Assembly (NCBI GenBank): GCA_963697995.1
Contig: OY969110.1
Coordinates: 1,511,404 to 1,575,403 of the forward strand
Direction: 5' to 3'
Origin: an uncultured Chlamydiae bacterium
GTDB taxonomy: Bacteria; Chlamydiota; Chlamydiia; Chlamydiales; JAJFMB01
DNA length: 64,000 nucleotides
Shown: piece by piece, positions 32,530 to 35,091 of the stretch
How positions within the stretch are numbered: position 1 is the first letter of the stretch
Layout of the letters: every line of letters starts with the position of its first letter
Program-made: the position numbers and the translations under genes
The notes under the pieces: generated by a model
Told to the model about the DNA's origin: nothing
The model's database searches: none
Seen by the model: only the letters and a program-made list of their open reading frames with translations

Positions 32530-33402
32530 TTAAGGGGAGCTCGGGTATCTTTCACTTAAACTGAGAACGGGAATGTCCGGGTTAAAATAAGTAGACACAA
32601 GACTTAGATTAGAGGAGGTTCTCACTAAAATATCTCCTTTAGACAGCAGAAGGCAATCGATTAAAGCGTCTAATCCTGATTGATAAGGATCTTCAGCCCC
32701 AAAATGGAGAGGTTTTCCGTTTGTTGAGCGTTTAGCTGTTTCGTTGAAAGAAACAGCATCTCCAAAATGAGTTCTTAGAAATTCAAGAAATGGTGCCTCA
32801 TCGGTGGCTAAAAAGATTTTAAAATCGGCTCTGTTGATTGAGGTGATCACCTCCTCGATTTTTTGAAGGATATCGATGTAGGGCACATGAGGCGCCTCAC
32901 TTATTTTGTCTGTACCTCGATAGTGAACTGAGATCACAAAATGGCCAAGAAGATTTTCTTTGTAAAAAGTGTCTACAAAATGGATGATTTCGGGACGAAT
33001 AGTCAAATATTTTTTTATTAAGTGGGAGCACTCAATTTTTGATGTAAAAAGCTCGATCTCCATAAGGGAAGTGTTAGGAGGGTAGACTGTTTGAATAGTT
33101 GGGGGTGTCATATCGCCAAATTGGGTCGGGAGAAAATAGTAATGCCACCAATTCTCTCCCCGATTTGGACAGTAATAATTGCCCGTAGTTCCAAAATCGA
33201 CCTTAAAACCTCTAATTAAACCCTTGTCATAAGATTTACATACGGTTAAAATGTAATGAAAAGTGGAAAAAAAGCCCGCAGATTCTCGATCGATAATGAT
33301 GAGAGCGTTTTCAGTAAGAAGTGTTTTATCTAACCGATCAAAATTCCCTTGTAATGTTTGAAAAAAAAAGATAAAAGATAAAAATAAAAATCTTAATGTC
33401 AT
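32530..33402 (-). CDS. GT23-like (FUT8/NodZ-type) fucosyltransferase-like glycosyltransferase, paralog 2
   Basis: [41 protein letters not shown] and [26 protein letters not shown] mirror FUT8 blocks as I recall them ([66 protein letters not shown]). N-terminal signal/anchor [19 protein letters not shown]. Confidence 0.7.
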   Translation of the reverse strand: [290 protein letters not shown]

Positions 33403-34162
33403 AATTTTTCTACCCGCTTAATACCTAATTTGTCTACAACGACCCTATATTTTTCGTCAGAATTGTTGTTTGAAGTGATCACCATATTTAAATGAGACAC
33501 CTTTGGTAGATGCCTTTTTTCGACGCTGTTTGTTTTTTGATTAAAGCAGAGGTAGAGGGAAGAGTATCTGAGGCTTTTGCTATCAAACGGTGAATATTGA
33601 ATCGAAAAGGGATGTTTATATCTTTGAGGCAAGGATCAGCTTTCGGGTCTTGTTTGTAAAGAATCACTTCTCTTTTGTACTTGATCACCGTTTCGAATCT
33701 CTTGATATCGGGAAGCTCTTCTGAAAAGTTATTTTCTCGAAGATATTTAATTTTTGGAGGAAGTTCGTGCAATTTTAAAAATTGTACTGTCTCTTTTAAG
33801 TCACCTATTTTATTGCCCGAAGGATCCAAAATAGCTCTGCTAAAGTCGGGAAACCAGAAGCTTGCTCTATTTTGATACAAGTTTTTTAGATCTTCCTTGA
33901 AAGAGGTCGTGATAAGGGGGTTAGTGGCCCGGGAAAAAAAAGCCGTAGCAAAAAGAGTCGTATAGAGAAACATCGCAATGCCAGCAAATCGACTGATAGT
34001 TCCTGTTACTCCTTTCCCTTGATCATTTATGAAGGTAAAGCTTTTTTTTAACTTAGAGAATTGAAAAAAATTGAGTTTGAGGGTGAAGTAAAGGCCGATA
34101 AAAAGAACAGCCGGGAATACGAGATATAGAGTTAAAATGTGGTTTACAGTGTCTAAAAACAT
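33399..34162 (-). pseudogene. Chimeric remnant: first ~59 codons of agcS fused to the 3' half of the gene at 35088-36176, frameshifted near its end
   Basis: MFLDTVNHILTLYLVFPAVLFIGLYFTLKLNFFQF.. matches the first ~35 aa of the agcS N-terminus exactly and then diverges slightly. From ..AGIAMFLYTTLFA it follows the 362-aa protein. It has a 16-codon internal deletion and a frame break; the tail continues in ORF 33399-33632. Confidence 0.7.
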
Positions 34163-34221
34163 AAAGCCCCATTTTATCTAAGGGTCTCTAAATAATCAAG
34201 AATTCTTAAGTCTTAAAAGGT

Positions 34222-35091
34222 TTAAAATGAGATGGGGTACCTTTCATTCATATTGATAACAGGGATGTAAGGATTAAAATAAGTAGAGGCAAGACTTAAA
34301 TTAGAAGAGGTTCTCACTAAAACATCTCCTTTAGACAGCAGAAGGCAATCGATTAACGCCTCAAGTCCTGACTGATAAGGGTCTTCAGCCTCCAAATGGA
34401 GAGGTTTTCCGTTTGTTGAGCGTTTAGCTGTTTCGTTGAAGCAAACAGCCTCCCCAAAATGAGCTTTAAGAAATTCTAGAAAAGGAGCCTCATCTGTGGC
34501 TACAAAAAGTTTAAAATCTGATCTGTTATTTGATTTGATAACCTCTTCGATTTTTTTAAGGGCGTCAACGTAGGATACTTGAGGCGCTTCAGTTATTTTG
34601 TCTGTTCCTCTGTAGTGAACAGAAATGACAAAATAGCCAAGAAGATTGTTTTTGTAAAAAGTGTTTACAAAATCGATGATTTTAGGACGAATAGTGATAT
34701 ATTTTTTTATTAAATGAGAGCACTCAAGGCTTGAAGTAAAAAGCTCGATTTCCCAACAGGACGAATTAGGGGGAAAGTAAGCTTGAATAGTTGGAGGTTT
34801 TATATCGCCAAATTGAGTCGGTAGAAAATAGTAATTCCACCAATTCTTTCCCCGATTTGGAGAGTAATAAAGGCCCGTAGTTCCAAAATCGACCTTAAAA
34901 CCTCTAATTAAACCTTTGTCATAAGATTTACATACAGCTAAAATGTATTGAAAAGTGGAAAAAAAGCCCGCAGAGTCTCGATCGATAATGATGAGAGCGT
35001 TTTCAGTAAGGGGTGTTTTATTTAACCGATCAAAATTCCCTTGTAATGTTTGAAAAAAGATAAAAGATAAAAATAAAAATCTTAATGTCAT
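34222..35091 (-). CDS. GT23-like (FUT8/NodZ-type) fucosyltransferase-like glycosyltransferase, paralog 1
   Basis: Same motifs as paralog 2 ([62 protein letters not shown]). The ATG overlaps the stop of the upstream gene (ATGA). Confidence 0.7.
   Translation of the reverse strand: [289 protein letters not shown]

Follow-up and report, generated by a model that had tools for sequence, protein, structure and literature searches.

The 64-kb window considered here, that is, the whole stretch of DNA that was analysed, lies on the 2,051,574-bp contig OY969110.1 of an uncultured Chlamydiae bacterium and carries on its minus strand two paralogous genes, GT-1 (32530..33402, 290 amino acids (aa)) and GT-2 (34222..35091, 289 aa), which resemble the animal α-1,6-fucosyltransferase FUT8 and the rhizobial Nod-factor α-1,6-fucosyltransferase NodZ of glycosyltransferase family 23 (GT23). 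Both proteins are minimal FUT8-like catalytic domains, the catalytic domain being about 255 aa long, and are very probably GT23-type transferases which depend on guanosine diphosphate (GDP)-fucose. The enzyme class itself is ordinary, and GT-1 and GT-2 are a new, uncharacterised subfamily of a known kind of enzyme; the unusual point is that export signals are found on the subfamily and on glycan enzymes encoded beside its relatives. The reading that is slightly favoured here as a whole is that both are exported GDP-fucose-dependent fucosyltransferases which act beyond the inner membrane, probably with a donor from the host. The feature that distinguishes this variant is the family-wide export signal, and it may point to an extracytoplasmic, host-fed fucosylation.

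An earlier note on this DNA, made from the letters alone, had proposed two FUT8/NodZ-like paralogues of about 290 aa; both are intact open reading frames (ORFs) with exactly the coordinates given above, and all peptide blocks that it quoted, including VHYRGTDK(I)(S/T)EAP, (H/Q)YIL...GFKVDF and (F)QTLQG, are present in the translations. The two proteins are 82% identical and differ in length by one single-residue indel, located in the N-terminal hydrophobic run. The note had proposed a profile search and a structure prediction with comparison to FUT8 and NodZ as checks, and had named in advance the absence of the conserved Arg of an HxR block as telling against the assignment to GT23. In the profile search, the Pfam NodZ family PF05830 was matched above its gathering cut-off of 28.3 bits by both GT-1 (E=2.4e-10, 40.2 bits) and GT-2 (E=1.2e-8, 34.6 bits), while FUT8_N_cat PF19745 was matched below its threshold (16.1 and 13.2 bits, respectively, vs 27.6) over profile positions of approximately 331-469 of 499. 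The best sequence matches of a phmmer search against the chains of the PDB were NodZ (2hhc, E=8e-9) and FUT8 chains (E=0.01-0.02). The likeness to GT23 thus goes far beyond what chance would give. In addition, an AlphaFold model of GT-1 built on a 114-sequence family alignment (predicted local distance difference test (pLDDT) 92, predicted template modelling score (pTM) 0.87) was compared with the PDB by Foldseek, and ranks 1-31 were all FUT8 or NodZ, with a best E of 8e-11 and a template modelling (TM) score of 0.65. The matches after rank 31 were AtFUT1 (GT37), POFUT2 (GT68) and POFUT1 (GT65), families of fucosyltransferases which are all GDP-fucose users (PMC7014118). The model therefore predicts a GT-B-like fucosyltransferase fold, to which FUT8 and NodZ come closest among the solved structures. 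The Arg in question, R162 of GT-1, is invariant in the family alignment, so that the assignment made in the note stands on the profile match, on the predicted fold and on this residue.

The residues around R162 have counterparts in the donor site of FUT8. Motif I of GT-1 (V159-P171, 32890..32928, minus strand), as defined by HMMER alignment to FUT8 chains and by family conservation, places H160, R162, D165, K166 and E169 opposite H363, R365, D368, K369 and E373 of FUT8 with a one-residue gap, and in motif III the same alignment places D249 opposite D453 and S264/N265 opposite S468/S469, the register of the Ser being certain to ±1 residue. G43, F45, H160, R162, G163, D165, K166, D201, H233, D249 and S264 are invariant across the 114 homologues, and E169 is conserved in at least 90% of them. 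The equivalent residues of FUT8 contact the guanosine and the pyrophosphate of the donor, Glu373 is the catalytic base, and replacement of R365, K369 or E373 by Ala kills the activity (PMC7033129; PMC11468063). Judged from the alignments, the FUT8-type set of GDP-fucose-binding and catalytic residues is thus kept in the GT-1 family. The machinery of GT-1 and GT-2 consists of the His-x-Arg, Lys and Glu base of motif I and the Asp and Ser of motif III, and it would carry out an inverting fucosyl transfer from GDP-L-fucose.

GT23 is usually treated as an animal family together with rhizobial NodZ. A 2024 survey likewise described bacterial GT23 homologues as very rare (PMC11468063), but an exhaustive search of 1.84 billion cluster representatives gave 2,599 relatives of the window's subfamily at E<=1e-3, 1,187 at E<=1e-10 and 311 at E<=1e-30, none of which is characterised. 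A word-indexed search gave 419 relatives, and the best 120 of them are mostly 270-330 aa long, 38-53% identical and nearly all annotated only as PF05830; hundreds of bacterial proteins of about 280 aa with 40-53% identity are the nearest relatives. GT-1 and GT-2 belong to a large bacterial clade without a characterised member and are not eukaryote- or rhizobium-type genes. The earlier note had regarded GT23 as typical of eukaryotes and rhizobia, and hence unexpected in this organism; that expectation falls, as the nearest relatives are bacterial and some come from other chlamydial genomes. No paper on this family in Chlamydiae was found in the literature on NodZ or fucosyltransferases with Chlamydiae or Parachlamydia.

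The closest relative (53% identity) is encoded on a metagenome contig (L003) which has the same order of major facilitator superfamily (MFS) transporter, porin, gene X and GT genes with the same overlaps, including that of 4 nucleotides (nt) between X and GT; gene X encodes a conserved chlamydial membrane protein and lies directly upstream of GT-2 in the window. Other chlamydial genomes have the MFS, porin and X genes without the GT, so the GT is a lineage-specific insertion behind X. Further members occur in an insertion sequence-rich 2.29-Mb genome, near a Legionella_OMP gene, and in a 3.3-Mb genome which also appears to encode the chlamydial X protein. Some members of the family have tandem double domains or are fused to GT11 (α-1,2-fucosyltransferase) or GT32 domains, and relatives are found in clusters with GT10, GT11 and GDP-mannose dehydratase genes. 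A contig search with the single protein gave only two distant loci, in metagenome-assembled genomes (MAGs) labelled Myxococcales and betaproteobacterium. The latter (L002, 6796-10817, G + C content 63%) has four tandem paralogues, about 36% identical to GT-1, which have no hydrophobic N-terminus and share an arginine-rich amphipathic N-terminal region instead. Giant-virus MAGs (20-34% identity) and cyanophages carry more distant relatives, and plasmid records contained only true rhizobial nodZ (23-32% identity). Furthermore, a phage-borne member of 319 aa (IMGVR_UViG_3300046012_000591, 4200-5159; 41% identical, with a signal segment) is a moron with a RecE-like exonuclease gene on one side and genes for glycine-rich tail fibres on the other. 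This suggests that phages spread the gene and that it serves to convert surface glycans; its position beside the tail fibres faintly hints that bacterial surface glycans are the targets, much as in lysogenic conversion.

FUT8 (2DE0, 6X5H, 6TKV, 6VLD) is the best structural match of GT-1 (TM 0.60-0.67) and shares with GT-1 and GT-2 motif I, including the catalytic Lys and Glu, and the Asp and Ser of motif III. However, identity in the fold alignments is only 14-18%, GT-1 and GT-2 are approximately half the size of FUT8, and they have a short bacterial-type signal and not the Golgi type II anchor. They also have neither the coiled-coil stem nor the C-terminal SH3 exosite, so they are not FUT8 orthologues. 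NodZ (2HHC, 3SIW), the second-best structural match, is like them a bacterial single-domain PF05830 protein and is similar in size (about 320 aa), but the enzyme of S. fredii NGR234 is 24% identical and has in common only the His and Arg of motif I, while the Lys and Glu are missing. NodZ has a ~38-residue insertion after the second strand which has no counterpart in the GT-1 family, and it is cytoplasmic and starts directly at the first β-strand without a signal segment. Moreover, nodZ lies between pmm and gmd on the symbiosis plasmid, whereas the context in the window is a porin, X, the GT genes and an amino-acid symporter. A NodZ orthologue with a nodulation function is ruled out by the identity of 24%, the signal segment and the gene context; nod genes and sulfotransferase genes were both absent from the window. 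The third group to be compared is the GT23 expansion of brown algae, which is divergent and SH3-less, keeps the GDP-fucose site and has been proposed, as candidate fucan synthases, to make sulfated glycans rich in fucose together with sulfotransferases (PMC11468063). It is reminiscent of those relatives of the window genes whose clusters contain as many as four GT23-like genes besides GT11 and numerous sulfotransferases, although the algal enzymes are eukaryotic Golgi enzymes and the likeness to the bacterial clade is one of features.

The signal-like segments comprise residues 1-19 of GT-1 (33346..33402, minus strand) and residues 1-18 of GT-2 (35038..35091, minus strand), the latter being one Phe shorter, both by rule-based inspection, and they are candidates for a Sec-type signal peptide or a signal anchor. 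GT-1 begins with M-T-L-R, with one basic residue, followed by a hydrophobic core of 10-13 residues and QTLQG before NF, so that L-Q-G occupies positions -3 to -1 (small or neutral at -3 and -1), and a net-acidic stretch comes next. By the rule-based check, the basic n-region, the 7-15-residue core and the small residues at -3 and -1 of a tripartite Sec signal are all present. In the model of GT-1, a helix (residues 2-23) and a low-confidence linker to residue 32 precede the first strand of the domain. Look-alike N-termini are found on exported proteins of the same window, namely a porin (MLKHTLIAMFALFPTLLQA before QG) and a GH114-family protein (MKRFAFFLLFSTMALESTQG before SF). Within the family, 101 of the 114 members have a hydrophobic N-terminal segment and 95 have a basic n-region, with a median uncharged run of 17 residues; the sequence of the segment varies freely among the relatives while its character is retained, and in one homologue a ricin-type lectin domain stands between the signal and the catalytic domain. 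In the window proteins, a basic stretch precedes the core and the net charge behind it is -1 to 0, and an N-in, C-out orientation is consequently predicted. The earlier note had read the hydrophobic N-terminus either as a Sec signal or as a Golgi-style type II anchor; the signal-like segment is supported, but the Golgi-style anchor is not, because the segment is like the Sec signals of the exported proteins of the window. These features speak for a signal peptide of the Sec type or, at the minimum, for a signal anchor in N-in orientation, and not for a long Golgi-type anchor, and an extracytoplasmic location of GT-1 and GT-2 is on the whole probable as judged from sequence.

According to the favoured reading, the Sec signal peptide would place the catalytic domain in the periplasm, at the surface of the cell or, if it is released further, in the lumen of the inclusion, where fucose would be added to a glycan acceptor which most likely belongs to the bacterium's own envelope. 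The donor would be host-derived GDP-fucose or GDP-fucose made beside the enzyme from host GDP-mannose. The bacterial periplasm normally contains no nucleotide sugars, so in this obligate intracellular organism the donor of an exported enzyme would have to be supplied by the host; taken by itself, a host-derived donor is a tentative and somewhat doubtful proposal. The identity and the source of the donor, export with cleavage and the acceptor are all points that we infer. Two known systems show comparable arrangements. The gonococcal Lst is an outer-membrane α-2,3-sialyltransferase which uses scavenged host CMP-NANA, the cytidine monophosphate-activated form of N-acetylneuraminic acid (PMC4324315); by analogy, GT-1 and GT-2 may likewise be Leloir enzymes that decorate the cell's own surface glycan outside the cytoplasm with a host nucleotide sugar, but Lst belongs to an unrelated family, transfers another sugar and comes from an extracellular pathogen. 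In Chlamydia trachomatis, glycogen is made in the inclusion lumen from host uridine diphosphate (UDP)-glucose imported via SLC35D2 (PMC4829429), and GlgA is thus a chlamydial GT-B enzyme which works outside the bacterium on a host nucleotide sugar delivered by a co-opted SLC35 transporter (PMC4829429). GlgA differs in being an enzyme of an unrelated GT family that leaves the cell by type III and not by Sec secretion and makes glycogen from UDP-glucose.

If exported, these nucleotide-sugar-dependent enzymes sit where a free-living bacterium has no nucleotide sugars. If the favoured reading is true, an intracellular bacterium could draw directly on the GDP-fucose of its host and put fucose on its own surface or vacuole, and this would be a second, independent case beside the glycogen synthesis of C. 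trachomatis in the inclusion lumen. If, on the other hand, the segment is only a membrane anchor, GT-1 and GT-2 are ordinary surface-glycan fucosyltransferases of a new subfamily. In addition, a FUT8-like enzyme as compact as this is a possible tool for glycoengineering.

Signal-like segments are also frequent on the glycan enzymes encoded around relatives of GT-1. A 24.8-kb Logan contig, whose family member is also found on a 3.3-Mb chlamydial contig, has a cluster (L006, 1-16849) of GT92, GT11, GT10, two GT23-like, DUF268 and GDSL esterase genes and of further ORFs with a GxxGDxL fucosyltransferase-like N-terminal motif, and nearly all of the cluster genes are signal-like at the N-terminus, while the adjoining cytoplasmic enzymes (an epimerase, a HAD protein and an aminotransferase) are without such segments. 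The same cluster adjoins trp genes (Trp repressor, Trp/Tyr permease). On a 265-kb contig (L009, 1-20990; JGI 3300020620), 16 of the 17 complete cluster genes begin with a signal-like segment, and this set contains four GT23-like, GT11, four GT1/GT4-type and four complete sulfotransferase genes, an S-adenosylmethionine (SAM) methyltransferase, a metallophosphatase and a GDP-mannose 4,6-dehydratase; such a gene content would suit the synthesis of a sulfated, fucose-rich glycan. A similar 60-kb contig has an alike large cluster, with 3-4 GT23-like genes per cluster and several sulfotransferases. The GDP-mannose 4,6-dehydratases with a signal-like N-terminal extension form a clade (P0376-P0403, 381-411 aa, vs 362 aa in the canonical P0428), and an export-like signal is odd on a nucleotide-sugar enzyme dependent on nicotinamide adenine dinucleotide phosphate (NADP). 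Moreover, in the Myxococcales MAG, N-termini like those of lipoproteins are found on the family member as well as on the GT25, GT32 and DUF5672 genes beside it. Either these clusters represent cytoplasmic assembly lines tethered to the membrane, or an entire pathway for the tailoring of glycans lies outside the cytoplasm. In the broadest form of the latter, which is speculative and on present evidence unlikely, some environmental chlamydiae and other carriers would run a Golgi-like, Sec-exported pathway of GDP-mannose dehydratase, GT23-like, GT10, GT11 and GT92 enzymes, sulfotransferases and methyltransferases in the periplasm or the inclusion lumen, which would be fed with host GDP-sugars, 3'-phosphoadenosine-5'-phosphosulfate (PAPS) and SAM and would make a fucose-rich, sometimes sulfated coat, and the duplicated pair of the window would be this organism's share of that machinery.

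The duplication that gave rise to the pair can be traced in the window. The genes form a tightly packed minus-strand string in the order of a Legionella_OMP porin, X, GT-2, a chimeric remnant, GT-1 and a symporter, and self-BLASTN and global alignment revealed in it a 1.69-kb tandem duplication (35724..33987 vs 33986..32293), the unit of which runs from the middle of X over the GT gene and a 59-nt spacer to the first 178 nt of the symporter gene. Unit 1 (33987..35724, minus strand) comprises the 3' part of X, GT-2, the spacer and a copy of those 178 nt, and unit 2 (32293..33986, minus strand) comprises an X remnant, GT-1, the spacer and the 5' portion of the actual symporter gene. The identity between the units is a mosaic, with 97.9% in the X part, 87.7% in GT, 88.1% in the spacer and 92.7% in the 5' end of the symporter gene; between the units, the X part, which is decaying, is thus more alike than the functional GT genes are. 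By the Nei-Gojobori method, GT-1 and GT-2 show a synonymous divergence (dS) of 0.35 over the whole gene and a ratio of nonsynonymous to synonymous divergence (dN/dS) of 0.28, which indicates that both copies are kept by purifying selection while the co-duplicated fragments decay. The dS of the first 30 GT codons is only 0.06, which points to a recent gene-conversion tract over the X remnant and the signal-peptide codons. At the junction of the units, a chimeric and frameshifted remnant (33399..34162, minus strand), which is absent from the earlier note and was recognised from translations and alignment blocks, contains an ORF of 224 aa (33488..34162) made of the symporter N-terminus (66 aa) and a piece from inside X that has lost 48 nt, showing a weak TIGR00835 match at residues 18-66, and a frameshifted tail ORF (33399..33632) whose stop overlaps the GT-1 start. 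The fusion of the symporter 5' copy to an internal piece of X at the junction explains both the chimeric ORF and the frameshifted tail.

Several points weigh against export. The assignment is based on rules of thumb; 25 of the 114 homologues, especially those of large polysaccharide clusters, have a basic stretch (net >= +2) just after the hydrophobic core; a betaproteobacterial relative has no hydrophobic segment at all; and no covarying cysteine pairs, the signature of disulfides, were found in the family alignment. The near identity of the signal segments of GT-1 and GT-2 was considered as evidence for export and rejected, because this stretch was recently homogenised. Furthermore, a nucleotide-sugar-dependent GT-B enzyme outside the cytoplasm is biochemically unusual. 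A rather unlikely alternative is that the hydrophobic segment is only an inner-membrane anchor and that the enzyme works at the cytoplasmic face on a lipid-linked precursor of lipopolysaccharide, lipooligosaccharide or polysaccharide with the cell's own GDP-fucose. The cytoplasmic side is the usual arrangement for bacterial Leloir glycosyltransferases, relatives occur beside GT4, GT2 and GDP-mannose dehydratase genes in polysaccharide clusters that look classical, and the PAPS-, SAM- and NADP-dependent enzymes of such clusters, which bear a like segment, are easier to reconcile with a cytoplasmic location. By the positive-inside rule, the strongly basic stretches directly after the core would favour a cytoplasmic catalytic domain in the relatives that have them, but they are absent from the window proteins, whose charge pattern predicts the opposite orientation. 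In addition, the cores, with 10-15 residues, would make a short transmembrane helix, AxA-like sites or a lipobox-like Cys come after many of them, the segments resemble the porin signal peptides of the same genome, and no gmd, fcl or fkp was found among the ORFs of at least 150 aa in the window.

If the proteins do leave the cytoplasm, they might go further and act as secreted effectors on host glycoconjugates, for example by core-fucosylating the N-glycans of the host, either at the membrane of the inclusion or within the secretory pathway of the host cell. The two characterised GT23 enzymes fucosylate O-6 of the reducing-end N-acetylglucosamine of a chitobiose unit, in the N-glycan core and in the Nod factor, respectively, and this preference of both for chitobiose-type acceptors would fit such a role, as would the eukaryote-like effector genes of the region (UCH, HECT-like, LRR-kinase) and a supply of GDP-fucose by the host. 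This is nevertheless quite improbable, since a Sec signal leads only to the periplasm and there is no sign of a further secretion signal, the SH3 exosite with which FUT8 recognises N-glycan antennae is absent, and the occurrence of the family in Myxococcota-labelled MAGs and beside phage tail fibres points to bacterial surface glycans. An origin in which a eukaryotic Golgi enzyme of the FUT8 type or a rhizobial nodZ was recently acquired, with the type II Golgi anchor retained, is hardly credible: motif I (HYRGTDK..EAP) is indeed nearer to that of FUT8 than to that of NodZ, and distant relatives occur in giant-virus MAGs, but the bacterial relatives, which number in the hundreds, are 40-53% identical compared with 14-18% for FUT8, 24% for NodZ and 20-34% for the giant-virus proteins. 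The local G + C content of 0.37-0.39 is near the window mean of 0.40, stem and SH3 domain are missing, and the porin-X-GT string recurs in a second genome, that of the L003 contig, at 53% identity, so the GT is not recent. It is also very improbable that the fold has been kept by proteins which are no fucosyltransferases, that is, which use another GDP-sugar, bind glycans without catalysis or are decaying duplicates. The clade has no characterised member, and X and the duplication junction are degraded; on the other hand, the residues by which FUT8 binds GDP-fucose are all conserved, both copies are intact and under the constraint described above, and every structurally related family uses GDP-fucose.

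As to the neighbouring genes, the string is headed by a porin of the Legionella_OMP family (36504..37685, minus strand; Pfam PF05150, E=5.7e-24), which contains a Cys/Asn/Ser-rich low-complexity insert (…NNGCSTCGKSCNSCNNNSNGCNSCNNNSNGCNDCNTCNSC…). Gene X (35088..36504, minus strand), the stop of which overlaps the start of GT-2 by 4 nt, is split by a frameshift near 36150 into ORFs of 131 aa (36109-36504) and 362 aa (35088-36176), while its relatives have about 466-500 aa; the frameshift is an apparent 1-nt insertion in a run of AAAGAGAG and is due either to an error of the assembly or to true pseudogenisation. X is conserved throughout the Chlamydiales, its homologues bearing the names Chlamydiales, Parachlamydiaceae and Protochlamydia, and it has a central two-helix hydrophobic hairpin; its AlphaFold model is confident (pLDDT 89.6), and comparison with the PDB gave no significant match (best E=0.03). 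A functional partnership of X and GT was considered and dropped, because X is found without GT in other chlamydiae, is frameshifted in the window and has no match in the PDB. Downstream of GT-1 by 59 nt lies a sodium:alanine symporter gene of the AgcS type (31145..32470, minus strand; PF01235, E=3e-99; TIGR00835, 391 bits), and a perfect 22-nt palindrome, CTTAAGTCTTATAAGACTTAAG, lies over the GT-1 stop codon at 32513-32534. A consensus scan found a sigma-70-like element, TTGATT-17-TAAAAT, in the duplicated spacer (34171..34199, minus strand), the original of which is at 32479..32507 just upstream of the symporter start. The copy could drive GT-1, although the sigma-70-like sites of the region were not above the shuffled expectation in the promoter and terminator scan.

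Scans of the window against Rfam and for tRNAs yielded nothing. The window also holds a TLC ATP/ADP translocase and a second Legionella_OMP porin, and these, together with UCH, HECT and LRR-kinase genes and the chlamydial homologues of X, bear out the view of the earlier note that the DNA belongs to a chlamydia-like intracellular organism. The eukaryote-like candidate effectors (19229-21055, 27269-28921 and 49618-51498) include a gene that combines LRR and protein kinase, a deubiquitinase of the UCH type and a ubiquitin ligase domain which is HECT-like, and a 1,440-aa ORF at 45048-49370 has no Pfam match. Finally, the region encodes a further exported glycan-acting enzyme, a signal peptide-bearing glycoside hydrolase (4179-4991, minus strand) of GH114, a family whose characterised activity is endo-α-1,4-polygalactosaminidase-like.

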